From Candidatus Komeilibacteria bacterium (GTDB lineage: Bacteria > Patescibacteriota > Patescibacteriia > UBA1558), in NCBI GenBank assembly GCA_048538275.1, contig JBLYPW010000002.1, positions 2,111 to 66,110 of the forward strand: DNA of 64,000 nt, in the 5' to 3' direction. Numbering within the stretch: the stretch's first letter is position 1; every line of letters starts with the position of its first letter. The notes beneath the pieces were generated by a model that was given only the letters and a program-made list of their open reading frames with translations, searched no databases and had not been told where the DNA came from. Positions 21,958 through 44,935 of this stretch are shown in pieces. The position numbers and the translations under genes were made by a program.

Positions 21958-24900
21958 ATTAAATAAAATCAACCCCCGGCGTTGGCAACCCCCGGCGTTG
22001 ATTATAATAACAGCGATTATTATTGTAATTGGCCTTATTTATATCTTTAATAAACCAGAACCAGCCACTGCTTGGTTCAATGACGGCTGGCATTATCGGC
22101 AGACAGTAGCTGTTACTAATGCTGGTACTGAACAAACAGACTTTCAGATTAAGATAACTTTAGATACAGCCGCATTGGTTACGGCAGGCAAAATGCAATC
22201 AGATTGTGATGATATAAGACTTACAGACATTAATGGTAATGTATTATCTCATTGGATAGAAGATACCACTTGCAACACCGCGGCAACAGAGATTTGGACA
22301 AAGCTAGCATCAATTCCCACAACAGCAATTAATTTATATTTATATTATGGTAATCCTAGTGTTAATAGTGTTGAGGTGGGACAGTGTGATATGTTTGTAT
22401 GTTGTGGCTCAGATGTAGGTGGATCTTATCATAACAATCCAGGTTATGGATTAACATATAATACAACCGAAGATTATACTTTACAATTCGTTACATTGGA
22501 TTCAGAAATAGCTCAGGATATTGATGTTTATGTTCACGATGGGCCGGCGCCTACAGATACAATTTTATATACAAAATCTATATCTTTATCTTCTGGATTA
22601 AATACAGATGTTAATATTGAGATACCATTAGGTATAGGCACTAATTATTTATTAAGACCAGATAATACTAGGGATAATTTAAAAAGAACGCCTGACGACT
22701 CAAATTTACCATACGTTTGTGAAGGAATTACCATTAATGGTGGTAATCAAGGGTATTCTACATATTATTATTATTTTTATAATTGGAAATTAAGAAAACA
22801 TACTACCACCGAGCCAGTTGTTGGTGATCCATCTTCTGAAGAAAAAGGCCCGGGACCAATTGCTTATTGGAAATTTGATGAGGGTTATGGAATAACCGCA
22901 CAAGATTCTACCACGGGTAATAATGACGGCACCATAACCGGTGCCACTTGGCAAGCAGAAGACATGTGCGTGAGTGGGAAGTGCTTGAGTTTCAACGGCA
23001 GTAGTTATTTTGTTAAGGTTTCCGATAATAGTATTTTAAAACCCACAGATGTTATCACCGTAGGGGCGTGGTTTAATAGTAATGACATTACTACGTCCGG
23101 TCAACGCATAGTTTCTAAAACCGAAGGCAGCGGGTATCAATTAAGTTTAAACGAAAATAGCGCCTGTCCTACCAATACATTGTGTTTTTTAGCCCATGTT
23201 GCTGGAGGATATAGATCAGCTAGTTACGCCTCTTCTAATATAGAAAGCAATAAATGGTATTATCTCGTAGGCACATTTGATGGCACCAATGGTTATCTTT
23301 ATTTGAATGGTGAACAGGTTGGTAGTTTTTCTCAGTCTGGAACAATAGCTACCAGTACAGCTCCCGTATGTTTAGGAGCAGAGGCAACATCAACCTCTTG
23401 TAGTACGGGTTATTTTAATGGTCGGATGGATGGTGTAGGAATTTATAATTACGCTCGCACCGCCGCTCAAATAAAAGCAGATTATCTAGCTGGACAATCA
23501 GGCGCACCATCTGGTGCCAGCGCGTCTTTGGGTAGTAGGCAACAAGATCAGAGTGAAGGTTTGGTAGGTTATTGGAAGATGGATGATGCGGGTGTAGATG
23601 CTGAAGGTGAAACCATCAGTGACAGTTCCGGTAACGGTAATAGCGGCACGCTTTATGGTGATAATGCTACCGGTGATAATGGTACTGGCATGGATTGCAC
23701 AGCTAGCGGTAAATATGGCACGGGTTGTAGTTTTGATGGAGTGGATGATTATGTTTCAATCATAGATAATGGTGATTTGGATTTAGAAACAGCATGGACT
23801 GTCGCGACTTGGGTAAAACGAGAAGGCACTTGCGATAGTGGCGGTTATTCTAAAATAGTTTCAAAATGGGAAAATTATTTTTTAGCTATAGATTGTAATT
23901 TAGGTGATAATGTTTTGTATGGCTGTGTGGGTGATGGCTCTGGTCATACTTGTAATAATTCAAGGGATACGACTTTACCTCTTAATGAATGGCATTTTTT
24001 GACTTTTACATACAGCGAAGCCTTAGGTAAAGCCGATCTTTATATGGATACTCAATTAATACATAGCGTTGATGCTACTAGTACTGCTAGTAGCAATTAT
24101 GATTTAAATTTTGGTACGCCACATTCTGGTGTTACCAATCAGTATTTTCAAGGCAAAATAGATAATGTAAAAATATACAATACCGCCCGTACAGCCGAGC
24201 AGATCATGCGCGATTATAAAACCGGACCACCGCCGGTGGCTTACTATGATTTTGAGGAAAAATCTACATCTATAGCATATGACAAATCAACCTATGGTTA
24301 TAACCTTACAGCCGTTGGACTGGACAGTACAAATATAGTTTTAGGAAAAATTGGCAGTGCCTATAAATATGGGACGTGGACTGAAAGACACACTGGTTCA
24401 AGTTTTAATATTTGTAATAACATAACAATGGAAGCGTGGGTTTATCCTTTATCCACTCCATCAAATATGTATACGATTGTGTTAAATAATGGGGCAAATG
24501 CTGCTTATTTGAGCTATGATCCGTCCAATGGCGTAAGTACATATTGGTACAATAAATCTTCTGTAGGTTATCATTCATCTGGATCGTCCACAGTACCTTT
24601 AAATACATGGTCGCATGTAGCAGCTGTTTGGGATAATACTGGGGCTAATCTTTATGTAAATGGGATATTGAAAAATTTTGTATCATCTACAGGAACTTCG
24701 TCGTGTACTGGTGATGGTTTGGTTGTGGGAGCTGAAAATGACGTTAGACAAATGGATGGTTATATTGACGAGGTGAAAATCTACAACTACGCTCGCACCC
24801 CAGAGCAAATTTTACAAGACATGTATGGGGATGAGGACGCGCATCCGATTGCATATTACAAATTTGATGAGGGGTATGGAACATCTCTCAAAGATTCTAT

Positions 24901-26860
24901 AAATAATAATGATTTAACTAATAGTGGGGCTGATTGGACGCCAAATGGTAGGTTTAATAAGGCTCTAAGTTTTAATGGGTCTAGTGATTACTTAACTCGT
25001 AATATATTTTCTGATGATTGGACAAATTCATCATCTGGAAGTATTTCTATGTGGTTTAATTGGGATAGTACTGACACGGATGGAGTGGCGGGGCTTTTAG
25101 CTATTCAAGACACAAGTACAAACAACAATCTTTTTCGTTTATCTTTGGGTAATACTACCGGAAGCTGGGACGATGAAAGTATAAGAGTAGAATTTTATGA
25201 TAACTCCATTTGGGTTTATAATTATGTTTATAGAGGTGGTGAAGTTTTGTATAGGGATAGTCAGTGGCACAATGTTGTGTTTACTATAAATGAGAATGGT
25301 AATAATTTGTATGTTGATGGTGAAAAATTATCTGTGTCACAATGGGGAAGTTCTTTAGAGGGACAATCATCAACGCGTTGGTTAGATGATATACCAGAAG
25401 TGAATAATATTTTCGTTGGGTCTACGTATAGTAGCGGCGCTCCATATATTAATATTAAGGGTAAAATTGATGAATTAAAAATATTCAACTTTGCCTTGTC
25501 TCCAGAACAGATTAGGAAAGAATATAATCAAAGCGCGGGCTTGCAAATTAGAACACAAAAAAATGATTCATCCACTTGGGATGATGGTGGCTTTGGTGGT
25601 GCCGCGCCAATAGCGTATTGGGATTTTGAAGAGGGTAGTGGTAGTACGGCTTATGACAAGTCGGGCAATGGTTATAATGGTAGCATAGTAGGCGCTGCTT
25701 ATGATTTGGGCAAGAATGGTTGGGGTTTGGATTTTAATGGCACTAGTGATTATGTGAGTACGGGATTTACCGGATCATTTGCTGATATGACACAAGAATT
25801 TTGGATATATTTGCCCAGCGATTTTGATAATACGGTGCGTAATGAGGTGATTGGTGTAGATTGGACAGCTGGCGATAGAGCCACGCATTTTGCTATTGGT
25901 TGGGATAGTACTGCTAATACGCATTGGAATACAGGTAATGACTGGACCAATATACCAAATGACAATTTGAAAACCGGCTGGAACCATGTAGCCTTGGTTA
26001 TGGACAGCTCATCATCAAAGAAAATAGTTTATTTTAATGGCGCGGTAGCTTTGAGTAATAGTAATTATTCGGCGATAAACATATCAACTGATTTACAAAT
26101 CGGATATTTACGCGACTATGCTGGTTCTTATTTAGAATATCCATTAGACGAAATGAAAATATTTAACTACGCGCGCACTCCGGCGCAGATTGCTTATGAT
26201 TACAATGGTGGCAAGCCAATCGGCTGGTGGAAATTTGATGATGGTGAGGGAATTACTGCCAACGACGCTTCGGGTAATGGTAATAATGGAACATTGACCA
26301 ATATGGATCCGGCCACCGATTGGCTGGAAAGTAGCAATTGCCAATTTAATGGTTGTTTGGATTTTGATGGGACGGATGATAGAATTATAATCAATGAAAG
26401 TTCAGTTCTTAAGCTGACCAAAGCCGTTTCAATAGCAGTTTGGGTTAAGCCAAGCGCAATGGGTGTAAATCACTGGGGTTTGGTTAGTCAGGGTGATGCT
26501 TTCGGAGAATCATATTCTTTATATATAAGATACAACACCAACAACATGATAAGGATGGTTATTAATAATAATGGTTCTACGGCAGGAAATTTAGATATAG
26601 GTCAATGGAATCATATTGTGGGAACTTTTGATGTTACAGATGGTATTAAATTATATAAGAATGGAGAGTTGATTACTACAACTGCTTATTCGTCAGATAT
26701 AGTGCCGGTAGCAGAGGGTTTGTATATTGGCTGGCAATCTGGTTTATCAGGTTCAGATTATTTTCAGGGAAATATGGATGACGTCCGTATTTATAACTAC
26801 GCTTTAACAGCAGATCAAGTCAAAGAGGTGATGAATTATGGTTTGATCAGGTTTAAATAG
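21941..26860 (+). CDS. Giant paralog 4 (about 1,640 aa): REP-encoded leader, TM anchor, DUF2341-like domain, then multiple LamG-like modules. It ends in the conserved motif VMNYGLIRFK.
   Basis: The ORF is open from 21857, but the ATG at 21941 gives MIKGVKLNKINPRRWQPPALIIITAIIIV, matching the leader of the other paralogs, and overlaps the previous stop by 17 nt. The REP dimer is at 21970-22000. AWFNDGWHYRQTVAVTN...GKMQSDCDDIRLTD...LYLYYGNPS matches DUF2341 as I recall it. Many DEVKIYNYART-type LamG ends follow. Confidence 0.8.
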   Translation: MIKGVKLNKINPRRWQPPALIIITAIIIVIGLIYIFNKPEPATAWFNDGWHYRQTVAVTNAGTEQTDFQIKITLDTAALVTAGKMQSDCDDIRLTDINGNVLSHWIEDTTCNTAATEIWTKLASIPTTAINLYLYYGNPSVNSVEVGQCDMFVCCGSDVGGSYHNNPGYGLTYNTTEDYTLQFVTLDSEIAQDIDVYVHDGPAPTDTILYTKSISLSSGLNTDVNIEIPLGIGTNYLLRPDNTRDNLKRTPDDSNLPYVCEGITINGGNQGYSTYYYYFYNWKLRKHTTTEPVVGDPSSEEKGPGPIAYWKFDEGYGITAQDSTTGNNDGTITGATWQAEDMCVSGKCLSFNGSSYFVKVSDNSILKPTDVITVGAWFNSNDITTSGQRIVSKTEGSGYQLSLNENSACPTNTLCFLAHVAGGYRSASYASSNIESNKWYYLVGTFDGTNGYLYLNGEQVGSFSQSGTIATSTAPVCLGAEATSTSCSTGYFNGRMDGVGIYNYARTAAQIKADYLAGQSGAPSGASASLGSRQQDQSEGLVGYWKMDDAGVDAEGETISDSSGNGNSGTLYGDNATGDNGTGMDCTASGKYGTGCSFDGVDDYVSIIDNGDLDLETAWTVATWVKREGTCDSGGYSKIVSKWENYFLAIDCNLGDNVLYGCVGDGSGHTCNNSRDTTLPLNEWHFLTFTYSEALGKADLYMDTQLIHSVDATSTASSNYDLNFGTPHSGVTNQYFQGKIDNVKIYNTARTAEQIMRDYKTGPPPVAYYDFEEKSTSIAYDKSTYGYNLTAVGLDSTNIVLGKIGSAYKYGTWTERHTGSSFNICNNITMEAWVYPLSTPSNMYTIVLNNGANAAYLSYDPSNGVSTYWYNKSSVGYHSSGSSTVPLNTWSHVAAVWDNTGANLYVNGILKNFVSSTGTSSCTGDGLVVGAENDVRQMDGYIDEVKIYNYARTPEQILQDMYGDEDAHPIAYYKFDEGYGTSLKDSINNNDLTNSGADWTPNGRFNKALSFNGSSDYLTRNIFSDDWTNSSSGSISMWFNWDSTDTDGVAGLLAIQDTSTNNNLFRLSLGNTTGSWDDESIRVEFYDNSIWVYNYVYRGGEVLYRDSQWHNVVFTINENGNNLYVDGEKLSVSQWGSSLEGQSSTRWLDDIPEVNNIFVGSTYSSGAPYINIKGKIDELKIFNFALSPEQIRKEYNQSAGLQIRTQKNDSSTWDDGGFGGAAPIAYWDFEEGSGSTAYDKSGNGYNGSIVGAAYDLGKNGWGLDFNGTSDYVSTGFTGSFADMTQEFWIYLPSDFDNTVRNEVIGVDWTAGDRATHFAIGWDSTANTHWNTGNDWTNIPNDNLKTGWNHVALVMDSSSSKKIVYFNGAVALSNSNYSAINISTDLQIGYLRDYAGSYLEYPLDEMKIFNYARTPAQIAYDYNGGKPIGWWKFDDGEGITANDASGNGNNGTLTNMDPATDWLESSNCQFNGCLDFDGTDDRIIINESSVLKLTKAVSIAVWVKPSAMGVNHWGLVSQGDAFGESYSLYIRYNTNNMIRMVINNNGSTAGNLDIGQWNHIVGTFDVTDGIKLYKNGELITTTAYSSDIVPVAEGLYIGWQSGLSGSDYFQGNMDDVRIYNYALTADQVKEVMNYGLIRFK

Positions 26861-26864
26861 AATC

Positions 26865-26912
26865 CAACCCCCGGCGTTGCCAACGCCGGGGGTTGACAAC
26901 ACCCGGTGTTGG
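26865..26912. repeat. REP family 1 hairpin (caacccccggcgttg CCAACGCCGGGGGTTG inverted pair) plus the palindrome acaacacccggtgttgg, between paralog 4 and RAYT-A.
   Basis: Perfect inverted repeat of the 15-mer. Second palindrome at 26896-26912. Confidence 0.85.
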
Positions 26913-26962
26913 CGGTAAATTATAGAAAACAGGGTCTATCTAACGATTAACCCTGTATTTTT

Positions 26963-27538
26963 ATGCCTAAAATTGAGCGAAATATTGAACCCGGCTCTAT
27001 TCATCATGTCTATAATCGGTCGGTAGAGAAAAGAACCATATTTTTTATTGACAGAGATTATCAATGGTTTTTAGAAAAAATAGCGTTTTATAAAGTTAAA
27101 TATAAGGTAAAAATCTTAGCTTTTGCGCTTTTGCCTAACCATTGGCATTTGTTAGTGCAGGAACAGGAAGTAGTCCAACCCCCGGCGTTGGCAACGCCGG
27201 GGGTTGTTAGAATGATTGGAGATTTATGCAATGCCTATGTCAAGCGCTTCAACATAGCTCATGATCGCTCTGGACCCTTATTCCAGGGCAGATTTAAGTC
27301 AAAAGTGGTTGAAGATGAGCATTATTTGCAGAATCTTATTAATTATATCAATCTCAATCCAGTAAAACATAAAATAGTAAAGAATATTAAAGACTGGGAT
27401 TATACGTCACATTGGCACTACTTGGAGAAAGGGAAATTTGCTTTGGTTGATAAGAGTGAGTTTATAGATTTTGCGGTTTATAAGGCTGGCGTGGTTGATT
27501 ATTTACGAAAATTTGAGAATATTGAGGAAGAATTTTAA
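26963..27538 (+). CDS. IS200-like HuH tyrosine transposase, REP-associated (RAYT-A, 191 aa). It carries an in-frame REP hairpin insertion.
   Basis: N-terminus MPKIERNIEPGSIHHVYNR. HuH motif LLPNHWHLLV. C-terminal Y motif HYLQNLINYINLNPVKHKIV. REP caacccccggcgttggcaacgccgggggttg at 27177-27207 is translated as QPPALATPGVV. REP hairpins flank the gene at 26865-26895 and 27542-27572. Confidence 0.8.
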   Translation: MPKIERNIEPGSIHHVYNRSVEKRTIFFIDRDYQWFLEKIAFYKVKYKVKILAFALLPNHWHLLVQEQEVVQPPALATPGVVRMIGDLCNAYVKRFNIAHDRSGPLFQGRFKSKVVEDEHYLQNLINYINLNPVKHKIVKNIKDWDYTSHWHYLEKGKFALVDKSEFIDFAVYKAGVVDYLRKFENIEEEF

Positions 27539-27541
27539 ATC

Positions 27542-27572
27542 CAACCCCCGGCGTTGCCAACGCCGGGGGTTG
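27542..27572. repeat. REP family 1 hairpin immediately 3' of RAYT-A.
   Basis: caacccccggcgttgccaacgccgggggttg, a perfect inverted pair. Confidence 0.85.
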
Positions 27573-27673
27573 GATTACACAAAATCGTATTTTTCTGTTA
27601 TAATTTAATCGTAAAATTACAAAAAAAGAGGGCCATGTTAAAAGGTTTTTTGACGTGGCTTTTTATAATATAG

Positions 27674-30600
27674 ATGTTGAATATAAAGGAAAAATTTAAA
27701 ATCAACCCCCGGCGTTGGCAACGCCGGGGGTTGGCAACACCCGGTGTTGGAATCCGCATCGCTTCTATTCTTTTTATTGCTATCATTATAGTAGCTGGTT
27801 TAATTTATATATTCAATAAACCTCAATCAGTAGAAGCAACTTGGTGGAACCCCACCTGGAGTTATAGACAAAGCATTGCTGTCACCAATGGCTCAGGCGG
27901 TACTTTAACAGATTTTCAAGTTGAGATATTGCAGAATGTTGATTTGAGTAGCCTTAATACAGCCGGCAAGCTGCAAGCAGATTTGGCTGATTTACGTTTT
28001 ACCGATATAAATCATAGAGTTCTGCCTTATTGGATAGAAGATAATACTATCTCTTCTGTAAATGCTTGGATTAAAATACCATCTATTCCTACAACCGGTA
28101 CTACTATTTATATGTATTATGGGAATTCATCGGCTAGTGATGCGCAGGATGGATTTAATACATTTTTGGCTTTTGATGATTTTGAAGACGGGGATATGAG
28201 TACATGGGAGCATATAGATGCTTGGGGAGATAATCTTGGCACATGGACAGAGTCTGGTGGCGTTATGCGTGCTGATTGTAATACTTTATGGTGCCATGAA
28301 ACTGCCTGGCAACATGTAAATTTTCAAACCGATAATGTTGCTTTAGCTGCCAAACATCGTTGTTTGGGTAATAATTCTGACGGTGAAGGTGGGATAGGTA
28401 TTTCTTTTACAGGCGGATGGGAAAATTATAGCACACAACAAACAATGCTTATCCGTAATGATAATCAAGATATCTGGGCAAGTGGAGGCACCCCTAGTAC
28501 CACCGTGTCGTTTACTAATACATGTAATACATGGTATAAAACCGAAATTAGAGATATTGCTGGCTCTAATGCAACTTTATGGGTGGATGATGTACAAAAA
28601 CATGCCACCACTAATAGTGTTACTACTGTAAACGGTAGGCCAGCTTTATCCCAGTATAAGGGTGATATTGAATACGACTGGGTATATTATAGAAAATTAG
28701 CATCCACTCAGCCTACAGCCGGCAGTCCAGCCACTGAAGAAAACGCCCCCGGCCCAGTGGGTTATTGGAATTTTAATGAGGGATTTGGCACAACAGCTTA
28801 TGATAGTACAGGTTATGGTAATGATGGGACAATTTCAGGGGCAACCTGGGTGCAGAATGGTAAAAGTGGTAGAGCTTTGAGTTTTAACGGGAGTAGTGAT
28901 TATATTATAACTAATAATGATATTGGAATATCAGGAACAGATGAAAGGACAGTTAGTTTATGGGTAAAAACTACATCAGCAAATGTTACTACAAATTCTA
29001 TTATTTTTGGAATGGGCACCGCTGCTGCTAATAATTTATTTGCCATGAGAACTGATTCTACTACTGATACTTGGAGATTTACAGATGCATCAGTTGCAAG
29101 AGAAACAAATGTCTCAACAACTGGTCAGTGGCAACACATAGTAACTATACTTGATTCTAGTCAACAATTAAGCGTTTATATTGATGGAATTATAACAGAT
29201 GTAAATAATATTGATTTGTCATCACAAGATACTACTAATGCTCCTTTCTATATTGGTTCAAGTGTTAATAATACTTTGTATTTTGATGGTCTCATAGACG
29301 AAGTACGCATCTACGACCGTGCCTTGTCAGCCAATGAAGTGAAACAGCTTTATAATCAAAATGCCGGCAGCTTTAATGTCGGGCAGTCTGGTATATCCAC
29401 TTCTTGCGCTGATCAATTGGCAAAAAATCCCGGCTCTAAGTCTGGTGTTTATACTATTGATCCTGGCTATGGAGTTGATCCTTTTGATGTTTATTGTGAT
29501 ATGGAGACTGACGGTGGGGGGTGGACTATGGTGGCATCAAATCATTCTAGTAGTACTTTAATACCCTCTGGCACTGGCAGAAATTCTGCTGAGTATGAGT
29601 TGGATAGGAATGGCAGTTATACTGCGTTAGGGACACCTTCTCCAAATACGGATTATATTATTGGCGCAGCTATTAATATATTGGAATGGGATGAAGCAAG
29701 GATTACTATGTTTGGGTTTGATTCAACTAGTTCATCGTATGTTTATCCCACAAATTTGGGAGATTATGCAGATGTTAAATGGGATGTTCCTGGTTCTGAT
29801 GCCGGACGGTTGGATCAGGCCGTTGCGGCAGCTAGTGTGTCCATATTTAGGAATAATAATTTTGCAAGTTTTCATCCAAGTGTTGCTTATTTCTATGTAG
29901 ATGGAGTACATCATGACTATATGCCAGATAGTGTATATGGCGCTAATGCAAATCAGGCAACAGTTGGAGGTGTTGGTAGAAGTGGCACGACTGTTACCGG
30001 TACATACTTTGGGCATGGTGTAACTGAGGGAAGTTTTGAGGGTTCATATGGCCCAGGAAACACGGCGAGTAAAAATGCCTCTGGGTATGTTACGTGGGTT
30101 AGAAGTAATACTGTGACTAGTTCATCTGGCGTTGCTCTAGACCTCCCCTTTGAAGCCGTATCCGGCTCTACGACTTATGATATTTCTGGTAATGAAAATA
30201 ATGGCACCATTACCGGCGCTACTCACAAAACTTCAGCCAATTGTAAGGTGGGGCGGTGTTTTGAGTTTGATGGGAGTGGTGATACTATAACCATAAGTGA
30301 TAGCACCAGTATTAATGCTATAGGGCAAGCTATGACGCTATCTGCCTGGGTTAAACCATCAGCATTTACAACTAGTTATAGGTCGGGGATTATCACAAGA
30401 CGTAATGGCAATGCAGGTATTGGATTTTATTTGGCCGGTGATTTAGATCCTGCTACATCAGGAACAATGGAGGCTATGATTGGGGGCGGGGCAAATGTTG
30501 CAGCTAATACAGCCTTACCACTAGATGAGTGGTCTTATACAACTATGGTCGCAAGCGGCGACAGTATTTCTTTTTATTTGAATGGAGTAGATGATGGTGG

Positions 30601-33412
30601 CGGCGTTTTGACCGGTTGGACCTGGGATGATGGTGTGGCTGTTCAGATTGGTGGAGTTACTGGTACAGCTGGTTATACAATATTTGGATTTATTGATGAG
30701 CCTAAAATATTCAACCGCGCTCTTACGCAAAGAGAAATTATGATGGAAATGAACGCTGGTAAACATCAGCCAGTATTAGATTTAGGTTTTGATGAAGGTG
30801 GAGGCAGTACAGCTTATGATAAGTCAGTTTTAACTAATAATGGTAGTATTTCTGGAGCTGATTATAAAACTCCGGAAAATTGTGTAAGTGGAAGTTGTTT
30901 GGATTTTAATGGTAGTAGTGATCATGTACGGATTACAGATAGCAGTTCTGGTGATGATTTGGATTTTGGTAGTGACAGCTTTACCGTTTCAGCTTGGGCT
31001 AATATTGATGAAGGAACAACTGCGCGTGGCACAGTACTATCCAAATCTAATGATGTGACTATGCCGGATACAGTTGGCTATTGGTTGATGGGACCCTATA
31101 CTGGTTGGTCTAGCACCTTTGCTTTTGCTACCAACGATGGTTCAGGTAGCACATTTTATGTTAGTGATGGTGATACTAGCTTGATAGATGGTAAGTGGCA
31201 TCACGTTGGTTTGATTTTAAATAGAGATACGGGCATTATGACGCTTTATGAAGATGGTCAGTCAGTTGACACGGCTGATATTAGTTCTTTGGGTAGTATT
31301 TCTAATAGTTATAATTTTGGTGTAGGTAGTTATCAAGGTGGTGGCAGTAATGTGATCAATGGCAAAATAGATGAAGTTAAAATGTATAATTATGCTTTAA
31401 CAGAAGCAGAATTAAAACAAGAATACACTCAATCCAAAGGTCAGTTTGGGCGGACTAGTGCGGTGGGAGAAAAAACCACGCCCGGAGCTTCTTGCGCGGA
31501 TATTTTAGCGAAAAATTCTCAGGTCGCAGATGGATATTATTGGATAGATCCTAATGGCGGATCACAATCAGACGCTTTTAAGGTTTATTGTGATATGACC
31601 ACTAATGGCGGGGGCTGGACATTGATTGAGTCATTTTCTTTAGCTAATAAAGCAAGTTTTACATCATTTTTGGGCAACGTGTCTATAAATGAGGATGATC
31701 CGACTCAAATAGATAATTATAGATTATCTAAGACTAGAATGGATAATTTAAATGGCGTTTCAACACAATGGCGCTCAACCTGTCAAATGAATCAGGATCC
31801 TACTAGAGATTATGCAATATCTAATAAATCAGATACAGATATAATGACATTTGCAATTACTGATAGTTGCCGGGTTATGGTTGATGTAAATGTCCGTGGT
31901 TATAATTGTCAAAATTGTCAGGCTAAGTGGTGGGGTTATGCCGCAGGTAGTAAGCATACCCACTTAGATTCAAGCATTAATAATGCTGTGTGTGGTGTAG
32001 GATCGCTTGACTCAGACGCTGGCTCTGTAAGTTCAGAAGATAATTGGGGTTATTATGCTTATACAAATCCTGAATTTCAATGTACTGCTTCTAGCGATTC
32101 AACAACAAATTGGTGGATGGGAGGTCTTGGCAGTAGTATTTCTACCGGCCCTGTTCTTGACATGACTTTTGATAAATATGTTGGTGGAGTTTATTTGGAT
32201 GAGAGTGGCAACGGACATAATACTACTACTATTAGCAGTGATCCTGAATGGAAAACAACAGTCAATTGTAAGTCGGGCAGATGTGTAGATTTTGATGATA
32301 GTTCGGATTGGGTTAGGATTGCAGCAAATTCAGTATTTGATTTTACAGGCGACTATACTTTAGAGGCGTGGATTAAGCCAAATTCTGTCGTGGGTTATCG
32401 TCACGGCATTATGGGTAAATATTCTAGCGATGGTTGGGGTTTGAATTTGCATGAAGATAAGGTGAATTTTGGTAGTCATACTTGTAGTAACTTTAGTGGT
32501 TCAACTAGTTTGCAAGCAGGTGCTTGGTATCATGTGGTGGGTATTTATAAAGAAACAGGTGATGATGAACTTTATGTGAATAGTCGTTTAGATGGAACTG
32601 GTAATTTAACCGACGGGAATTGTAATGCTGATACTAGCGATGTTGTTATTGGTACTTATAGAACTTCAACAACAGAAGAGTTTAATGGGATCATTGATCA
32701 GGTAAAAATATACGATAGAGCTTTAACACAGAGAGAAATATCTATGAACTATAATGGCGGTCAACCGATTGGTTGGTGGCGACTGGATGAGGGGGCGGAT
32801 AATTTATGTTCTGACGGCAAAGACGCTTGTGATAGTTCCGGTGAAGGGAATAATGGGACAGAAAGTGGAAATATTACTTGGATAACAGATACTTCTTTGT
32901 GTAAACAGGGTGGTTGTGCTAGTTTTGACGGGAGCGGGGATTATATACAAACTAGTTTATCCCAAACTTTTAATTCAACGACTATATCTTTCTGGATGGA
33001 TTGGGATAATTATGGAACAGATACTATCGATTTTATAGGAGAAAGTGAGGATAGTAGTAAAGTAATGGTTCACACCGGCGGTGGATCAGGGATAAATGGT
33101 ATAAGGTTTCATTTTGCTTCAAGCGCTTCAGGGTTTGATACAATAGGTATAATCGGCTCTGGTTGGAATCATTATTTAGTCACTTATGATAATGGGAGTA
33201 TAAAAATTTATAAAAACGGAGTTTTGGAAAATTCCGCAACGGTGACAGATGAGTCTGCTACTATAAGTTCTTGGGATATTGGCAGAAGAAGTAATAGTGA
33301 TGGTTATCATTTTAATGGTTCTTTAGATGATATCCGCATCTACAACTACGCCCTCACCGATAAACAGGTTAAAGAAGTATATAATCAAGGGTTGATTCAT
33401 TTTACCCCGTAA
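27674..33412 (+). CDS. Giant paralog 5 (1,912 aa): REP-encoded leader, TM anchor, DUF2341-like domain, LamG-like modules and two fibrinogen-C-terminal-like domains.
   Basis: Leader MLNIKEKFKINPRRWQRRGLATPGVG is encoded by the REP inverted pair plus palindrome at 27705-27752. TM helix IASILFIAIIIVAGLIYIF. DUF2341-like block TWWNPTWSYRQSIAVTN...GKLQADLADLRFTD...IYMYYGNSSA. Fibrinogen-like motifs CADQLAKNPGSKSGVYTIDPGYGVDPFDVYCDMETDGGGWTMVA at ~29395-29560 and CADILAKNSQVADGYYWIDPNGG..FKVYCDMTTNGGGWTLIE at ~31480-31640. LamG ends DEVRIYDRALSANEV, DEVKMYNYALTEAEL, DDIRIYNYALTDKQV. Confidence 0.8.
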   Translation: MLNIKEKFKINPRRWQRRGLATPGVGIRIASILFIAIIIVAGLIYIFNKPQSVEATWWNPTWSYRQSIAVTNGSGGTLTDFQVEILQNVDLSSLNTAGKLQADLADLRFTDINHRVLPYWIEDNTISSVNAWIKIPSIPTTGTTIYMYYGNSSASDAQDGFNTFLAFDDFEDGDMSTWEHIDAWGDNLGTWTESGGVMRADCNTLWCHETAWQHVNFQTDNVALAAKHRCLGNNSDGEGGIGISFTGGWENYSTQQTMLIRNDNQDIWASGGTPSTTVSFTNTCNTWYKTEIRDIAGSNATLWVDDVQKHATTNSVTTVNGRPALSQYKGDIEYDWVYYRKLASTQPTAGSPATEENAPGPVGYWNFNEGFGTTAYDSTGYGNDGTISGATWVQNGKSGRALSFNGSSDYIITNNDIGISGTDERTVSLWVKTTSANVTTNSIIFGMGTAAANNLFAMRTDSTTDTWRFTDASVARETNVSTTGQWQHIVTILDSSQQLSVYIDGIITDVNNIDLSSQDTTNAPFYIGSSVNNTLYFDGLIDEVRIYDRALSANEVKQLYNQNAGSFNVGQSGISTSCADQLAKNPGSKSGVYTIDPGYGVDPFDVYCDMETDGGGWTMVASNHSSSTLIPSGTGRNSAEYELDRNGSYTALGTPSPNTDYIIGAAINILEWDEARITMFGFDSTSSSYVYPTNLGDYADVKWDVPGSDAGRLDQAVAAASVSIFRNNNFASFHPSVAYFYVDGVHHDYMPDSVYGANANQATVGGVGRSGTTVTGTYFGHGVTEGSFEGSYGPGNTASKNASGYVTWVRSNTVTSSSGVALDLPFEAVSGSTTYDISGNENNGTITGATHKTSANCKVGRCFEFDGSGDTITISDSTSINAIGQAMTLSAWVKPSAFTTSYRSGIITRRNGNAGIGFYLAGDLDPATSGTMEAMIGGGANVAANTALPLDEWSYTTMVASGDSISFYLNGVDDGGGVLTGWTWDDGVAVQIGGVTGTAGYTIFGFIDEPKIFNRALTQREIMMEMNAGKHQPVLDLGFDEGGGSTAYDKSVLTNNGSISGADYKTPENCVSGSCLDFNGSSDHVRITDSSSGDDLDFGSDSFTVSAWANIDEGTTARGTVLSKSNDVTMPDTVGYWLMGPYTGWSSTFAFATNDGSGSTFYVSDGDTSLIDGKWHHVGLILNRDTGIMTLYEDGQSVDTADISSLGSISNSYNFGVGSYQGGGSNVINGKIDEVKMYNYALTEAELKQEYTQSKGQFGRTSAVGEKTTPGASCADILAKNSQVADGYYWIDPNGGSQSDAFKVYCDMTTNGGGWTLIESFSLANKASFTSFLGNVSINEDDPTQIDNYRLSKTRMDNLNGVSTQWRSTCQMNQDPTRDYAISNKSDTDIMTFAITDSCRVMVDVNVRGYNCQNCQAKWWGYAAGSKHTHLDSSINNAVCGVGSLDSDAGSVSSEDNWGYYAYTNPEFQCTASSDSTTNWWMGGLGSSISTGPVLDMTFDKYVGGVYLDESGNGHNTTTISSDPEWKTTVNCKSGRCVDFDDSSDWVRIAANSVFDFTGDYTLEAWIKPNSVVGYRHGIMGKYSSDGWGLNLHEDKVNFGSHTCSNFSGSTSLQAGAWYHVVGIYKETGDDELYVNSRLDGTGNLTDGNCNADTSDVVIGTYRTSTTEEFNGIIDQVKIYDRALTQREISMNYNGGQPIGWWRLDEGADNLCSDGKDACDSSGEGNNGTESGNITWITDTSLCKQGGCASFDGSGDYIQTSLSQTFNSTTISFWMDWDNYGTDTIDFIGESEDSSKVMVHTGGGSGINGIRFHFASSASGFDTIGIIGSGWNHYLVTYDNGSIKIYKNGVLENSATVTDESATISSWDIGRRSNSDGYHFNGSLDDIRIYNYALTDKQVKEVYNQGLIHFTP

Positions 33413-33434
33413 AGTAACGAAGTTACTAACGGGG
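33405..33434. repeat. Palindrome family 2 (ccccgtaaagtaacgaagttactaacgggg), overlapping the stop codon of paralog 5.
   Basis: Nested inverted repeat with inner stem gtaacgaagttac. Related copies at 39306-39336 and 44821-44935. Confidence 0.75.
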
Positions 33435-33462
33435 TGAGGGATAATGGTTATAACATATCAAT

Positions 33463-33600
33463 ATACAATACCCCGTCACTTCGACCGATGTCCAAACGCA
33501 GTGCGGACGAGTGGAGAAGTCTATAGAGCAGCCGTGTGATGAGAGACTTCTCCGCTCGCTTTCGCTCGGTCGAAGTGAAGAGGAGTATGGTTACTAGGGG
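33463..33600. repeat. MITE-like palindromic element, family 3, copy 2.
   Basis: ccccgtcacttcgaccgatgtccaaacgcagtgcggacgagtggagaagtctatagagcagccgtgtgatgagagacttctccgctcgctttcgctcggtcgaagtga is a long imperfect palindrome. Confidence 0.7.
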
Positions 33601-33686
33601 CGGTAGAATTAAAAAGCCGTTCGGAGGAAGCTCCAGACACGTCTGACGTGTCCAGCTTCCGACGAACGTGTGGATGAGGCAAAATT

Positions 33687-33806
33687 ATGCTAAAAATATT
33701 AAAAAACTTAATAAAAACGAGCCGGTGGCGCCACCGGCCTCCGGCTCCCGGCCTCCGGCTCCCAGCCTCCGGCCTTAGGCTCGGAGAGCGTTGGAATTAG
33801 TAAATC
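33687..33806. repeat. About 120-bp GC-rich insertion, relative to the paralogous leader at 39540-39590. It has 9-bp direct repeats ATGCTAAAA at both ends and internal cctccggctcc tandem units.
   Basis: Upstream regions 33586-33686 and 39516-39587 align. The second copy runs straight into ATGCTAAAATTAGCC. The first copy duplicates ATGCTAAAA at 33687 and 33807, with ...gccggtggcgccaccggcctccggctcccggcctccggctcccagcctccggcc... in between. Confidence 0.6.
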
Positions 33807-36800
33807 ATGCTAAAATTAGCCAAAAAATTTAAAATCAACCCCCAGCGTTGGCAACCCCCGGCGTTGGGAATATTAATAACAGCGATTATTATTGTATTTG
33901 CCGTGGTTTATTTTCTTCGAACACCCGGTGTTGTACAGGCAGAATGGTGGAATGAGGGCTGGCATTATAGAGATTCATATCCTATTACATACTCATCATC
34001 TGGTTCGGAATTAACAGAATATCAAGTCTTGGTGGAGGATCTGGATACTGCTACTCTAATAGCGGCTGGCAAGATGCAGTCTGATTGCGCGGATATTAGG
34101 TTTACAGATGTTAATAGTACAGTATTGAATTATTCTATTGTCGGCGCTACTTGTAATACCAGCAATACTAAAATATGGGTGAAGATGGAAAGCATCCCGG
34201 CAGGAGGAACAACTTTGTATTTATATTATGGCAATCCAAGTGCTAGTTTTTATCAAAGTGAAGAGAACACATTTAGTTATAGTACAGAAAAAACAGTGGG
34301 ATATGTTTTAAATGACGGGAGTACAGCTTTTGATTTAATTAGTTTGGCAGATGGTAATTCTATAACACACAATAGTACGACTTTAACTTTGAATAAAGGT
34401 GAAAGTAGCGCCCTTACTACCTCTACTTATTTACCAGTAACTGCCAAAAAATTATTTAATATGTCCACTGAGGAGTATGATACTATTGTACCGATTGGTT
34501 GGGCTGGCACGGAGTTTGTTTACCAGAATCGCAACGGGACTTATGAAACAGATTTTGTTATGGTCAGTCCGTGGGGTACGGCTACCGTACAAATATATAT
34601 TGATGGTGTGCAATGTGGTGCTGATAGAACAGTAACTAGCTCTGGTTTAAAGGTGACAGACTGTGGCGGCGCTGCTTCTGATGTGTTTAGGATAGTAAGT
34701 GATATACCTATCATTGTAAATAGGTCTAGCAGTGTAAATGATCCCCACCCTATGCATCCGGCTGATTTAGGACCTTGGTATGGTTGGGATTCAAGCGGCG
34801 ATTATATTGCCGCTGGCCCTAGTGGAGCCAGTTATCAGTGGATAGATAGTGGCATGAGCTCTGTTTCCTCAAGTAGTTTAGGTGCAAATGCGGGGACTAC
34901 TTTAGAAGCTGGTGGTGGCAGTTATTATTCTGGTGATACTATTAAGGTTTGGTCAACAGATTATGTTATGGGCGCGTCTACAGCTGGTGATGCTGACGGA
35001 GGGGATGCTACTACTTATTTGCCAAACTGGGAATTTGGCACCATAACCGGGTCGCCTTATGCAACGGATTTTGTGGCAGTACTATCTGATCAGGCAGTCA
35101 CTTGTACAACTTATAATAATAGCGGTGCCACCGTAAATACACAGCAATTATCTAGTACCAATACACAGGTTTATGAACTGGGTGGAACAAACTTTGGTAT
35201 AGGAAGTACTAGTGAATATATTAGTGGTGCTTGGTATGTAGAATGTGATGGGCCAGCTATGTTTGTATCACAAAATGTTGATGATGAACAAAATATGTGG
35301 TCTTGGCCTATGATGCGGCAGTTTTCTTATCCTACACCAGCGGTTGGTTCGGCTAGTGGTGAGGAAAAAGGAGAAGCACCAATATTGTATTGGAAGTTTG
35401 ATGAAGGTGTAGATAATTCTTGTTCTGGTGGCGGCGATGTGTGTGATTCCACAACCACCGGCGATCACAGGAACTTAGTGGGAGAACCAGATTGGCAGAG
35501 TGAAGACATGTGCGTGTCTGGTAAATGTTTATACTTTGACGGTACTAATGATTATATAGATTTAGGTTTTGGCAGCGGTCGTAATTTAGCTACCGATCCA
35601 TTATCAATAAGTATGTGGGTTAGACCAACTAGTTCTAGTGAAGATAATATGTACATAGCAACAGTGAATGGTACCAATCAGAGATTTTATTTTGCTATAC
35701 AAAATGGTTTATGGGATATGGGAATTCAAAATTCAACTTGGAGTCAAGGGGGTGCTGTTACTAGTGCAGACCTTAACGAATGGACGCATATAGCTATTGT
35801 CGCTAATGGTTCAGCAGTTAGGTTATATGTTAATGGTAATTATAGTTTTCAGAAAACATATACTTCGTATGCATTAGCTGGTAATATTGCCATTGCCAGC
35901 CAAGGCCCTGCAGGTGGTTATAAATGGCGAGGCTCCATAGATGATGTTAAAATTTATAATTATGCTCGTACAGACGATCAGATTAAAGCCGACTACTTAG
36001 CCGGCTTATCTGGCTCTTCGTCTGGTGTTGGCGCGTCTTTGGGCAGTAGGCAACAAGATCAGAGTGAAGGGCTGGTTGGTTATTGGCAGATGGATGATGC
36101 GGGTGTAGATGCTGAAGGTGAAACCATCAGTGATAGTTCCGGTAACGGCAACAGCGGCACGCTTTATGGTGATAATGCTACCGGTGATAATGGTACTGGT
36201 ATGGATTGTACCGTTACCGGTAAATATGGTACGGGTTGTAGTTTTGACGGGGTGGATGATTATGTTCTGAGTAGTTCCAATATCCCCGCTATGTCAAATT
36301 TTACGATATCAGTATGGCTACAGTGGGATGATTATGGCACTTCAAATACTCAATTTGTCACTGGAGGTGCTCAGGAGCAGTTTGAAATTCAAACCGGTGG
36401 AGGCAGCGGAACAAACGGTTTACGTTTTATACCCAATACTCACGACGCATCTACGTTAGATGTTGCTAATGCAATTCCAGATGCAAACTGGCATCATTAT
36501 GCAGTTGTATATACCAACAATGATCAAGTACTTGCATATAGAGACGGAGACGAAATTGGAAATAAGAGTCACTCGGTAAGTAGTAGTACTACAGCAAGTC
36601 AATTCAATATTGGAAGAAGAAGCAATAATAGTTATTTTTTTGATGGCAAAATAGATAATGTAAAAATATACAATACCGCCCGTACAGCCGAGCAGATAAT
36701 GAGGGATTATAAAACTGGACCATCGCCGGTGGCTTATTATGATTTTGAAGAACAATCCACTAGCATAGCCTATGACAGATCAGGCACTGGTGTTAATTTA

Positions 36801-39272
36801 ACGGCTACTGGTCTTGATAGTACAAATATTGGTTTAGGTAAATATGGCAGTGCATATAAATATACTACATGGGAAGAAAATCATATAGGAACGGCTAGTA
36901 GTATTTGTAATACTATCACCATGGAAGCCTGGATCTACCCATTATCTGATCCTGCTGAAAGATATACCATAGTATTTTATTCAGGTTCTCAAGCCGCTTA
37001 TTTAAGCTATGCTAATGGGCAAGCCCTTAATACTTATTGGGCCAGCAAATCTTCTCCTGGTTATCATACGTCTGGTGCAAGCACTGTACCAATTAATCAG
37101 TGGTCTCATGTAGCCGCAGTTTGGGATGATGCTGGTGTCAGCCTTTATGTTAATGGCATTGAAAAAAATAGAGTGTCAACAACGGGTGGCTCTTGTACGG
37201 GAACAAGTTTAACTTTAGCTGCGCAAAATAGTGGACGACAAATGAATGGCTATATTGATGATGTTCGGATTTATGATTATCCCCGTACCCAGGAACAAAT
37301 TCTTTGGGACATGTATGGTGATGAATCGCCACACCCCATTGCTTATTGGAATTTTGATGAGGGATATGGCAGTACAGTTAATGATAGTGGGCCCTTGGGG
37401 GCTGATGGTACCATTACGGGTGGAACTTGGACAACGGATGGTAAATTAGCTAATGGTGTATCTATCAATAGTACGGACTCTATTAGTTGTGGCACTCATT
37501 CAGGTTTAATATTCGGTAGCGCAGATCATTCTTTTAGTGCTTGGGTAAAGCCAAGCGCTTTAACTAATTCTAATAATTATATTGTTGCCATTGGTAATAA
37601 TGCAACTGGCGAGCAATCCGGATTTGGTGTGAAAAGTGATGGAGATTTATTTCACTCAGCCTATTCTTCTCCTTTGGTAAGTTTTGATACGTCAGTTTCT
37701 ACGGGCAATTGGTATCATTTAGCTTTGGTACACGATAGTGGCACGAGTTATGCTTATGTGAACGGTGAACAAGTTAGCGGTCAAGCTATAGCTATGAATA
37801 TTACTACTGGCAAATGTTATATAGGCGCTCATACAGCCGCTGGTTCAACATTTAATGACGGCATCTTGGATGAAGTAAAAATATTCAATTTTGCTTTATC
37901 CCCAGAACAAGTCCGTCAAGAATATAATCAAGGTAGTCAGGTATCATTAGGTAAGCAAAAAAATGATTCATCCACTTGGGATGATGGTGGTTTTGGTGGT
38001 GCGGCGCCAGTAGCATATTGGAATTTTGAAGAGGGTAGTGGTTCTACGGTTTATGACCGGTCTGTTAATAGTAATAATGGTACGATTACCAATGCCACTT
38101 ATACGCTGGGTAAGCCTGGTTGGGGTATGCAGTTTGATCCTACTAATGAATATGTTTCTATTCCAGACCATACTGCATTAAAGCCAACAGAGATTACAGT
38201 TGAGGCTTGGGTAAAGCCTGGCACTACCATGTCTAATAATAGGATTATTTCTAAAACAGAGGTTAGTGGTTATACAATGGGCATGGCGATAGATGGTACA
38301 GCTGATAGTAACTTTTATGTATATAGAGATGGTGGATATATTAATGCTGGTTGGGATGTTTCTAATTTTAGTTCAGGTACTTGGTATCATATGGTTGGTA
38401 CTTATGATGGACAATATATTAAATTTTATGTAAATGGAGATCTTAAAGAATCTGTGGATGCGATTGGTAATTATCCCATAACATATATTGCTAATAATCT
38501 TTGTATTGGAATTGAAGCTGGCGGTACTACTTGTACAGATACTCGTGATTTTGACGGTGTTATAGACGAAGTAAAAATATTTGACTACGCTCGTACCCAA
38601 GCACAAATTGCTTATGATTATAATGGTGGTAAGCCGGTCGGTTGGTGGCCACTTGATAACAATGAGGGCATAACCGCTATGGATATTTCCGGAAATGGTA
38701 ATCATGGAACATTGACCGATATGGATCCGGCCACTGATTGGCTGGATGGTACAAGTTGTCAATACGAAGGCTGTCTGGATTTTGATGGGATGGATGATTA
38801 TGTTGATATCTCTTCATACGATATTTCTACCCCAAGTTTTACAGCTTCCTTATGGTTTAATATGACTACGTTAGAGGATAGTGATTATAATATACTTTTA
38901 CAGCAAACTGATAGTGGTTCAGGAACGGGTAGAACATTCCTTGGGATACACACAACCACTAATGACATATTTACAAATATTGGTAATTCACAATTAACTT
39001 CAGGAATCATTCCAGATACAGGAACTTGGTATCACGCTGTAGTATCTTTTGACGGTTCTAATCTCAAATTATATGTTAATGGAAAGTTAGAAAATTCCAC
39101 TACTGATGTGTTGGAAAGCGCTAACGCTTCAATATTAATTGGGGCTGGCAAATCGTTTTCTGCTACTCAATTCTTTGATGGTAAACTAGACGATGTTAGA
39201 ATATATAATTATGATCTAACCGCTGATCAAGTAAAAGAAGTTATGAACCACGGAGCTGTTTATTTTAAATAA
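33807..39272 (+). CDS. Giant paralog 6 (1,821 aa): REP-encoded leader, TM anchor, DUF2341-like domain, many LamG-like modules. It ends in VMNHGAVYFK.
   Basis: Leader MLKLAKKFKINPQRWQPPAL, with the REP dimer at 33836-33867. DUF2341-like block EWWNEGWHYRDSYPITY...GKMQSDCADIRFTD...LYLYYGNPSA. Several blocks are about 93 percent identical at nucleotide level to paralog 4 (for example 36033-36270 versus 23521-23760). Confidence 0.8.
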   Translation: MLKLAKKFKINPQRWQPPALGILITAIIIVFAVVYFLRTPGVVQAEWWNEGWHYRDSYPITYSSSGSELTEYQVLVEDLDTATLIAAGKMQSDCADIRFTDVNSTVLNYSIVGATCNTSNTKIWVKMESIPAGGTTLYLYYGNPSASFYQSEENTFSYSTEKTVGYVLNDGSTAFDLISLADGNSITHNSTTLTLNKGESSALTTSTYLPVTAKKLFNMSTEEYDTIVPIGWAGTEFVYQNRNGTYETDFVMVSPWGTATVQIYIDGVQCGADRTVTSSGLKVTDCGGAASDVFRIVSDIPIIVNRSSSVNDPHPMHPADLGPWYGWDSSGDYIAAGPSGASYQWIDSGMSSVSSSSLGANAGTTLEAGGGSYYSGDTIKVWSTDYVMGASTAGDADGGDATTYLPNWEFGTITGSPYATDFVAVLSDQAVTCTTYNNSGATVNTQQLSSTNTQVYELGGTNFGIGSTSEYISGAWYVECDGPAMFVSQNVDDEQNMWSWPMMRQFSYPTPAVGSASGEEKGEAPILYWKFDEGVDNSCSGGGDVCDSTTTGDHRNLVGEPDWQSEDMCVSGKCLYFDGTNDYIDLGFGSGRNLATDPLSISMWVRPTSSSEDNMYIATVNGTNQRFYFAIQNGLWDMGIQNSTWSQGGAVTSADLNEWTHIAIVANGSAVRLYVNGNYSFQKTYTSYALAGNIAIASQGPAGGYKWRGSIDDVKIYNYARTDDQIKADYLAGLSGSSSGVGASLGSRQQDQSEGLVGYWQMDDAGVDAEGETISDSSGNGNSGTLYGDNATGDNGTGMDCTVTGKYGTGCSFDGVDDYVLSSSNIPAMSNFTISVWLQWDDYGTSNTQFVTGGAQEQFEIQTGGGSGTNGLRFIPNTHDASTLDVANAIPDANWHHYAVVYTNNDQVLAYRDGDEIGNKSHSVSSSTTASQFNIGRRSNNSYFFDGKIDNVKIYNTARTAEQIMRDYKTGPSPVAYYDFEEQSTSIAYDRSGTGVNLTATGLDSTNIGLGKYGSAYKYTTWEENHIGTASSICNTITMEAWIYPLSDPAERYTIVFYSGSQAAYLSYANGQALNTYWASKSSPGYHTSGASTVPINQWSHVAAVWDDAGVSLYVNGIEKNRVSTTGGSCTGTSLTLAAQNSGRQMNGYIDDVRIYDYPRTQEQILWDMYGDESPHPIAYWNFDEGYGSTVNDSGPLGADGTITGGTWTTDGKLANGVSINSTDSISCGTHSGLIFGSADHSFSAWVKPSALTNSNNYIVAIGNNATGEQSGFGVKSDGDLFHSAYSSPLVSFDTSVSTGNWYHLALVHDSGTSYAYVNGEQVSGQAIAMNITTGKCYIGAHTAAGSTFNDGILDEVKIFNFALSPEQVRQEYNQGSQVSLGKQKNDSSTWDDGGFGGAAPVAYWNFEEGSGSTVYDRSVNSNNGTITNATYTLGKPGWGMQFDPTNEYVSIPDHTALKPTEITVEAWVKPGTTMSNNRIISKTEVSGYTMGMAIDGTADSNFYVYRDGGYINAGWDVSNFSSGTWYHMVGTYDGQYIKFYVNGDLKESVDAIGNYPITYIANNLCIGIEAGGTTCTDTRDFDGVIDEVKIFDYARTQAQIAYDYNGGKPVGWWPLDNNEGITAMDISGNGNHGTLTDMDPATDWLDGTSCQYEGCLDFDGMDDYVDISSYDISTPSFTASLWFNMTTLEDSDYNILLQQTDSGSGTGRTFLGIHTTTNDIFTNIGNSQLTSGIIPDTGTWYHAVVSFDGSNLKLYVNGKLENSTTDVLESANASILIGAGKSFSATQFFDGKLDDVRIYNYDLTADQVKEVMNHGAVYFK

Positions 39273-39305
39273 TTATTTAATAAGCAGGTGATGAACCCCG
39301 TAAAG

Positions 39306-39540: not shown

Positions 39541-39587
39541 CGTTCGGAGGAAGCTGCTTCCGACGAACGTGTTGATGAGGTAAAATT

Positions 39588-44798: not shown

Positions 44799-44820
44799 TT
44801 ATTTAATAAGTAGGTGATGA

Positions 44821-44935
44821 ATCCTGTAAAGTAGCGAAGCTACTAACGGGATGAACCCTGTAAAGCAGTGAAGCTACTAACGGGGTGAACCCTGTAAAGT
44901 AGTGAAGCTACTAACAGGGTGAACCACGGCGCGGT
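44821..44935. repeat. Three tandem copies of a ~36-bp unit from palindrome family 2 (ccctgtaaagtagtgaagctactaacggggtgaa), immediately 3' of the minus-strand RAYT-B.
   Basis: Visible direct repeats. Each carries the inner hairpin gtagYgaagctac. Confidence 0.8.

Follow-up and report, generated by a model that had tools for sequence, protein, structure and literature searches.

The opa genes of Neisseria are separate, full-length adhesin paralogs in which variable regions lie between conserved framework, mosaics arise among them by recombination and gene conversion, and repeat units are found in the leader region. In Helicobacter pylori, intact paralogs of one chromosome (babA/babB, sabA/sabB/hopQ) exchange segments in a non-reciprocal way, giving chimeras and conserved ends that evolve in concert. 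Silent-cassette systems (Neisseria pilE/pilS, Borrelia vlsE, Mycoplasma genitalium MgPar and Treponema tprK) build mosaics by segmental conversion, the conserved stretches that flank the variable ones providing the homology, and in the concerted evolution of tufA/tufB and of rRNA operons, copies that share a genome resemble each other more than they resemble their orthologues elsewhere, silent sites included. We describe a stretch of 64,000 nucleotides (the window) of a Candidatus Komeilibacteria contig (JBLYPW010000002.1, assembly GCA_048538275.1), which carries a tandem array of very large genes, all on one strand and called A and C to I below. Two old paralogs of this array, F and H, encode proteins made of lectin-type LamG modules; in each module a frame is conserved and a core of about 115-135 residues varies. 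We propose, with a probability of about 0.8, that F and H had long diverged when short-tract gene conversion copied four or more frame segments between them. Such a process is an instance of interparalog gene conversion and concerted evolution, and the organisation appears, by analogy, to resemble most the intact-paralog adhesin families such as Neisseria opa and Helicobacter bab/sab.

Like opa, the locus combines intact adhesin-type paralogs, a frame with variable regions, interparalog mosaics and repeats in the leader-coding part. It differs from opa, whose products are 8-strand outer-membrane barrels, in encoding giant multi-LamG proteins of Patescibacteria with an N-terminal helix anchor and in forming one tandem array; its leader repeats are 16-nt GC-rich units or hairpins, for which a role in phase variation is conceivable. 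In the Helicobacter families it is the two ends of the gene, 5' and 3', that become homogenised and the central part that is swapped, whereas here at least four internal frame segments of a repeat-domain protein are concerned. Unlike silent-cassette systems, the locus has no single expression site and no promoterless partial cassettes, and its copied tracts are the conserved parts. Finally, tufA/tufB and rRNA operons are homogenised over whole genes, while here only short frame segments are alike and the cores are kept very different. Silent-cassette antigenic variation was considered and rejected for the locus: the seven paralogs are all complete open reading frames (ORFs) with their own start codon and membrane anchor, and a self-comparison of the window revealed no LamG fragments in the intergenic spaces.

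Gene F (21857-26860, forward strand), which was paralog 4 of a first-pass annotation made from the sequence, encodes a membrane-anchored protein with a DUF2341 domain and six LamG (Laminin_G_3) modules, as delimited from the ORF list, Pfam and a hidden Markov model of the module. Gene H (33807-39272, forward strand), paralog 6 of that annotation, has the architecture of F plus an insert of about 360 residues after DUF2341. F and H are collinear over their six LamG modules; on aligned codons, their overall nucleotide identity is only 57%. In NCBI, the H product has a 100% identical counterpart (P0001), which comes from a metagenome-assembled genome (MAG) of Candidatus Komeilibacteria, on a contig of 200,731 bp that also carries F and I. 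The longest ORF of F overlaps the end of gene E by 100 nt (21857-21957) and the NCBI annotation gives a 1661-aa product; from the alignment with H and I, the true start of F is likely to be the ATG at 21941 (MIKGVKLNKINPRRW...).

A strict blastn comparison of the window against itself defined four ungapped F/H tracts, all on the forward strand: J2 (F 23520-23755, H 36031-36266; 93.2% identity over 236 nt, with 16 mismatches), J3 (F 24152-24264, H 36645-36757; 92.9% over 113 nt), J5 (F 25556-25657, H 37956-38057; 92.2% over 102 nt) and J6b (F 26276-26328, H 38694-38746; 94.3% over 53 nt). Their bit scores (82-341 in a 64-kb window) are far above chance. The first-pass annotation had reported four F/H blocks about 93% identical, and all of them were recovered within a few bases, at 92-94% identity; the peptides that it quoted are correct, and the scattered synonymous differences that it noticed are well illustrated by J2, in which 75 of 78 residues are identical and 13 synonymous differences accompany 3 non-synonymous ones. 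J2 closes at the last base of a DDYV motif, J3 opens with a 53-nt perfect match at GKIDNVKIYN, and the longest exact runs within the tracts are about 50-60 nt. The divergences of the four tracts (5.7-7.8%) are statistically equal (chi-square P=0.96). Their 35 mismatches (22 transitions and 13 transversions, 21 of the total falling at third codon positions) involve every base pair, and a diversity-generating retroelement was accordingly rejected as their source, the changes not being adenine-specific; no reverse-transcriptase domain was found among the ORFs covered by domain scans. F and H also have in common, within J2, a derived longer loop that is found neither in I nor in the outgroups. Among the paralog pairs of the window, internal tracts occur between F and H only.

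The sequence separating the tracts is about 66% identical or unalignable. It had been described as strongly diverged, which holds for LamG cores 2, 4, 5 and 6 (18-28% amino acid identity between F and H, effectively unalignable) but not for core 3 (F 24305-24763, H 36798-37253, forward strand), an old homology with 65% amino acid and 66% nucleotide identity whose silent sites are at chance. In addition to the four internal tracts, a 5' leader/membrane-anchor tract missing from the earlier list is common to F (21941-22090), H (33807-33960) and I (39588-39746), all on the forward strand, and weakly to G; it contains 16-nt GC-rich repeat units.

The silent sites separate constraint from shared history. 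For each segment, the synonymous and non-synonymous divergences (dS, dN) and the proportion of synonymous differences (pS) were computed by the method of Nei and Gojobori (NG86), and identical residues with degenerate codons were scored for use of the same codon, the chance expectation being taken from the paralogs' own codon usage. Within the tracts, which differ at about 7% of nucleotides, pS is 0.14-0.30 (dS 0.32 and dN 0.016 in J2, dS 0.38 in J3 and 0.21 in J5). Elsewhere, F/H segments that are conserved as proteins have far higher values: pS is 0.77 at the end of core 1 and the following linker (71% amino acid identity), 0.70 in core 3, about 0.95-0.96 in J4 (66%) and above 1 at the C-terminal end (76%). 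The same codon is used at 137 of 168 positions in the four tracts (0.82, for an expected 0.48) versus 142 of 305 in the other conserved F/H segments, of 63-76% amino acid identity (0.47, also for an expected 0.48), a difference with a Fisher's exact P of 4.8e-14. The excess is found in each tract (z of 6.7 in J2, with 59 of 72 codons, 4.1 in J3, 4.6 in J5 and 3.4 in J6b), and a maximal-segment scan of silent similarity beats all 10,000 permutations (P<=1e-4). Outside the tracts, the silent sites put F and H at the greatest age that such sites can register; inside, at a much younger one. Because silent sites are saturated outside the tracts and alike inside them, with the same expectation of 0.48 in both, protein constraint combined with codon bias fails as an explanation. 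The first-pass annotation had itself named this alternative, that is, uniform divergence along a proper alignment with blocks that merely mark the most constrained segments under matching codon bias; the contrast between 0.82 and 0.47 is not what it predicts.

The second line of evidence comes from related loci in other genomes. The nearest relatives are similar tandem arrays at about 40% protein identity in two outgroup genomes, L001 (NCBI GCA_041294365.1), which holds P0008, and L002 (JGI 3300082323), which holds P0005 and P0011; the latter is syntenic with the window, the array being followed by a Y1-transposase-like gene and then by IleRS. Closer strains were sought: the 41-nt exact core of J2 had no match in the genome or metagenome contigs searched, the best hits of the related-locus search reached only 33-37% identity and an exact look-up of H gave no contig. 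Segment by segment, H was compared codon by codon with the best match from every other gene, and neighbour-joining trees with bootstrap were built per segment. Following H towards its C-terminus, the nearest relative is F at J2 (0.93 nucleotide identity, next best 0.64) and J3 (0.86, next 0.73), L2b/P0005 at J4 (where pS with F is 0.95), P0005 at J5a, F again at J5 (0.92, next 0.82), P0008/P0005 at J5c, P0008 at J6a, F at J6b (0.85, next 0.78), and finally P0008 and other outgroups at the C-terminal end. The trees give an F+H clade at J3 (bootstrap 99.5%), J5 (83%) and J6b (83.5%), H+P0005 at J5a (75.5%), H+P0008+P0005 at J5c (100%) and H+P0008 at J6a (71%). Informative sites at which H agrees with F or with P0008 are strongly clustered: they form 416 runs, where permutation gives a mean of 548 (P<=1e-4). 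The four 60-nt bins at 36000-36239, in J2, contain 60 sites shared with F and 6 with P0008, while the unconverted H backbone between J5 and J6b (38055-38693, forward strand, comprising J5c, core 5 and J6a) contains about 150 shared with P0008 and 44 with F. This backbone is orthologous to P0008 of L001 and P0005 of L002, not to F, and among the cores of P0008 there is one that shares 64% identity with H core 5.

In J2, J3, J5 and J6b, paralogs of the same genome are thus closer than orthologues, and this homogenisation reaches silent sites; J4, J5a, J5c, core 5, J6a and the C-terminal end keep an older or orthologous history, and the grouping of H switches in flanks that are just tens of bases away from the tracts. 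An alternating nearest relative along H is the signature of gene conversion between ancient paralogs. H is an old lineage with orthologues elsewhere that bears short F-like patches, or the reverse. The comparison with orthologous loci that the first-pass annotation had suggested has thus placed H with F inside the tracts and with its orthologue in the flanks, and its proposal of segmental gene conversion is supported both by the silent-site excess and by the switching trees. The word "recent" that it attached to the events stands in a relative sense: the tracts are younger than the divergence of the paralogs, but a difference of about 7% and a tract dS of about 0.2-0.4 give no more than this relative age.

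The position of the tracts in the LamG domain was examined on an AlphaFold model of module 2 of F, built on an alignment of the 34 LamG modules of the window. The model (predicted local distance difference test score 82, predicted template-modelling score 0.84) is one beta-sandwich or jelly-roll and matches ConA-like lectin domains over about 230 of 240 residues (AbnA domain 4 and the Hc N-domain of clostridial neurotoxins, E about 1e-11). In the model, J2 (model residues 1-79) covers the linker and the first four to five strands of LamG 2, up to FDGVDDYV. J3 starts at model residue 212; it takes in the final strand of LamG 2 (KIDNVKIYN) with its helix and runs on through the linker into the first strand of LamG 3. 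J5 codes for the linker and first strand of LamG 5, and J6b lies within the first strands of LamG 6. The frame is thus composed of the last strand and helix of one LamG, the linker, and the first strands of the next up to FDGxDDYV. The tracts are limited to such frame segments, and the variable cores stay distinct.

Frame homogenisation is recurrent in the family, with partners that differ by genome. The paralogs of L002 have their own short tracts at J1, J2, J5 and the N-terminal domain, and those of L001 at the N-terminus and at a J2-like junction, in each case with 82-98% identity and excess silent identity. J5 is a tract in all three L002 pairs, and its residues are genome-specific within paralogs (DSSTW in the window, DSSETW in L002 and STETW in L001). 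The LamG cores, for their part, ignore slot orthology, the same core type being found in different slots of different proteins: F core 4 is closest to the last core of P0007 (77 of 151 residues identical), F core 5 to core 2 of an L001 gene, and H core 2 to G core 5. Recent copying of cores in the window was considered and rejected, since the silent sites of H core 2/G core 5, H core 4/I core 4 and F core 1/H core 5 are at chance and these similarities are ancient, as is that of H core 3 and F core 3 by the same measure. Whole-core exchange is seen elsewhere, in P0002 (L072 10001-16237) and P0003 (L074 101-6388), two alleles from different samples of one related single-copy DUF2341/LamG gene; P0002 is a lone gene in another genomic context and was used for this allele comparison only. 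Their scaffold DNA is 91-96% identical, but three cores (nt 1755-2102, 5089-5495 and 5757-6141) do not align at all; on one side the break comes right after FDGxxDY, on the other right before GxIDEVKIYN. For P0003 there is a single short contig, seen in two samples, so that an assembly chimera is possible. Whole-core cassette exchange thus appears, from these sequences, to be supported in the family. Cassette exchange between the neighbouring paralogs had been offered by the first-pass annotation alongside conversion; it is upheld at the level of the family, through this core replacement at motif boundaries, but not as a recent F-H event, no recent exchange of cores between F and H having been found.

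The mechanism that we favour would be homologous recombination between direct tandem paralogs about 12.5 kb apart, non-reciprocal and with tracts of 50-240 bp. These tracts would halt where similarity collapses at the core edges, or inside family-wide motifs. Heteroduplex may form only where the paralogs are still similar, that is in the frames, or selection may remove conversions that overwrite cores. Each tract would in turn keep the frames similar enough for further exchange, with the outcome that frames evolve in concert and cores stay different, and the conserved frames may also supply the homology for core swapping. The enzymology would presumably be a RecA/RecFOR-type pathway. A RecO-like gene (50504-51190, forward strand; Pfam RecO_N above the cut-off, TIGR00613 below it), predicted to encode a RecA-loading mediator, shows that at least part of the homologous-recombination machinery is probably encoded nearby.

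Several observations weigh against this explanation. The segments are short, and few sites underlie the bootstraps of 83%. No clear orthologue of F occurs in the pieces of L001 and L002, and the F and H copies of the tracts are equidistant from these outgroups, so that transfer may have gone either way. The outgroups are distant and no closer strain was found, which leaves the events with a relative age only. RecA was not seen in the window, and the sequence is a metagenome-assembled contig. The equal divergence of the tracts also fits a single older shared segment that was later interrupted; it fits equally events of similar age or a steady state between mutation and conversion. Lastly, the F-H similarity of J5 is only partly pair-specific and something besides F-H exchange acts there. 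At this junction (..WDxGGFGG.AP.AYW.FEEGSGST..; H 37953-38054, F 25553-25654, L002 8654-8733, 14287-14358 and 19594-19664, L001 15050-15134), same-codon identity is in excess even between genomes, with z of 3.3-3.6 against four outgroup genes, while the other junctions are at chance; for J2, J3 and J6b, silent identity is at chance against every outgroup. A hot spot, nucleotide-level constraint or exchange between genomes are possible reasons for the cross-genome identity of J5.

The equal divergence also suits the likeliest of the other explanations, itself improbable. It holds that F and H were duplicated or converted, wholly or over a long segment, about 7% of divergence ago and that the tracts are what is left after the stretches between them were overwritten by cassette swaps or by diverged alleles of other strains. 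Such remnants would be equally diverged, as the tracts are; J2 and J3 exactly flank core 2, and the cores that F and H carry in this slot are unrelated; P0002 and P0003 differ by whole-core replacement at these very motif boundaries, and cores sit in different slots in different proteins. We rate it low because the stretch of H from J5 to J6b is orthologous to P0008 and P0005 and its boundaries are not core boundaries. Re-importing such an orthologous segment would require a donor now missing from the genome; at J4, at J5a and at its C-terminal end, too, H resembles outgroup genes more than it does F, and altogether more and longer replacement events are needed than four short conversions. For slot 2 taken by itself (J2, core 2 and J3), a shared segment followed by a core swap is quite possible. 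A more ambitious proposal takes the frames for the joints of a dedicated cassette-shuffling system that would re-assort LamG cores among the tandem genes and change host or glycan specificity, the 16-nt leader units and hairpins and the nearby genes resembling REP-associated transposases acting as on/off or recombination controls. It is compatible with the P0002/P0003 core replacement, with cores in differing slots and with the silent conservation of J5 across genomes, but nothing indicates a programmed or frequent process and we hold it to be doubtful.

Explanations that dispense with conversion fare worse. It is most improbable that no recombination took place and that the tracts are simply the most constrained protein segments, whose DNA is kept alike by codon bias or by selection for translational accuracy: the frame motifs are indeed conserved across genomes at the protein level and the codons of J5 are so even between genomes, but the comparably conserved segments outside the tracts are at chance for the same codon under an identical expectation, J2, J3 and J6b are at chance against every outgroup, and the tree topology alternates along the gene. 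The cross-genome codons of J5 could also reflect a nucleotide-level element (for instance a structured RNA, a regulatory site within the gene or a signal for recombination) that keeps the tracts alike, which is just as improbable, given that there is no Rfam match in the window, that J2 folds no better than shuffled sequence (z=+1.1) and that J2, J3 and J6b have no silent conservation between genomes. An assembly artefact, whether by chimeric joining or by collapse of strain variants or paralogs into one consensus, has to be considered for a window taken from a MAG, in which repeated frames could mislead assemblers. We find it scarcely credible: the copies are 93% and not 100% identical and lie on the same contig, their longest exact runs measure about 50-60 nt, flanks could be swapped by an artefact whereas similar blocks that have diverged could not arise in this way, and the pattern recurs in two independent assemblies of other origin.

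Around F and H, the array is made of further genes on the same strand. Gene A (114-8258, at least 2714 aa) runs off the start of the window and is rich in glycine repeats. Between A and C, at 8325-10754, gene B (809 aa) has many hydrophobic helices; neither A nor B has a Pfam match. Gene C (11412-14876) has five LamG modules, D (14926-18378) three LamG modules with CBM_4_9 domains, and E (18676-21957) three LamG modules. D and E each consist of three copies of a unit that joins a CBM-like domain and a LamG domain. In E, intragenic blocks are 84-96% identical (for example 18844-18893 with 20971-21020, and 20849-20895 with 21887-21933), which suggests that homogenisation may also act between repeats inside a single gene. 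Genes G (27674-33412) and I (39588-44798) have a leader, a helix, DUF2341 and LamG modules; indeed F, G, H and I each encode a short charged leader, one hydrophobic helix, DUF2341 and five or six Laminin_G_3 modules. In Pfam, Laminin_G_3 (358-513 bits, 5-6 copies per protein) and DUF2341 (40-70 bits) are all above the cut-off. Domains resembling fibrinogen_C or the fibrillar-collagen C-terminal domain (COLFI) lie between LamG modules of G and I, and also in paralogs of L001 and L002. The array is followed by IleRS, the RecO-like gene, TGT, a ClpB-like gene and other housekeeping genes.

A 16-nt GC-rich unit, CAACCCCCGGCGTTGG, recurs as direct tandem copies or inverted pairs at 11297-11391, 14884-15013, 21970-22003, 26861-26895, 27174-27206, 27538-27576, 27703-27750, 33836-33870 and 39617-39650. 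Direct tandems of 2-3 units lie upstream of C and D as well as in the 5' coding leaders of D, F, H and I, where they are read as NPRRWQPPAL immediately ahead of the membrane helix. Since 16 is not divisible by 3, gain or loss of a unit would shift the reading frame. The inverted pairs are perfect palindromes of 31-35 nt that flank or lie inside ORF 26963-27538 and are found in the G leader. The P0008 leader in L001 contains CAACCCCCGGCGTTGG too, and the L002 paralogs have other GC-rich 16-nt repeats or hairpins in the same place. A leader ORF beginning MVKIKEKLKNKANPRRWQPPAL... has two units and then a stop upstream of C, and three units fused in frame in D; the sequences 11291-11384 (upstream of C) and 14898-14991 (5' end of D) are 100% identical over 94 nt. 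ORFs 26963-27538 (forward strand) and 44942-45619 (reverse strand) match Y1_Tnp (IS200-like); for both, the best NCBIfam match is "REP-associated tyrosine transposase" with 71 and 58 bits, under the 80-bit cut-off. The former, being flanked by CAACCCCCGGCGTTGG palindromes, has a REP/RAYT-like arrangement and a 191-aa homologue at the syntenic place of L002; the latter has internal tandem repeats (45187-45283) and a 48-nt palindrome (45272-45319). Other repeats concern H and I. Their upstream regions and 5' ends (33404-33968 and 39295-39746) are 93-97% identical over about 450-560 nt, and their 3' ends with the downstream sequence (39238-39320 and 44764-44846) are 91.6% identical; part of the H/I intergenic sequence recurs inverted at 46719-46874, and upstream of E (18486-18534).

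Patescibacteria live attached to other microbes, and little is known about the evolution of their lectin-type surface proteins. Their ConA-like lectins are suspected attachment factors (PMC12911398), and their large DUF2341 proteins have been discussed as candidates for the same role (PMC11809585). Full-text literature searches retrieved no report of a mosaic of this kind in DUF2341/LamG proteins. Gene conversion in surface-protein families is well known, and what is gained here is scope, in a poorly studied lineage, rather than principle. Mosaics of this type are misleading for orthology calls and gene trees, and the assembly of these giant genes can be led astray as well. The locus points to a frame-and-cassette organisation in which frames would be kept alike by gene conversion while the putative binding cores differ, a testable route by which host-recognition repertoires may diversify in reduced genomes. 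If it were true, a cassette-shuffling system would let these episymbionts change their host or glycan specificity.

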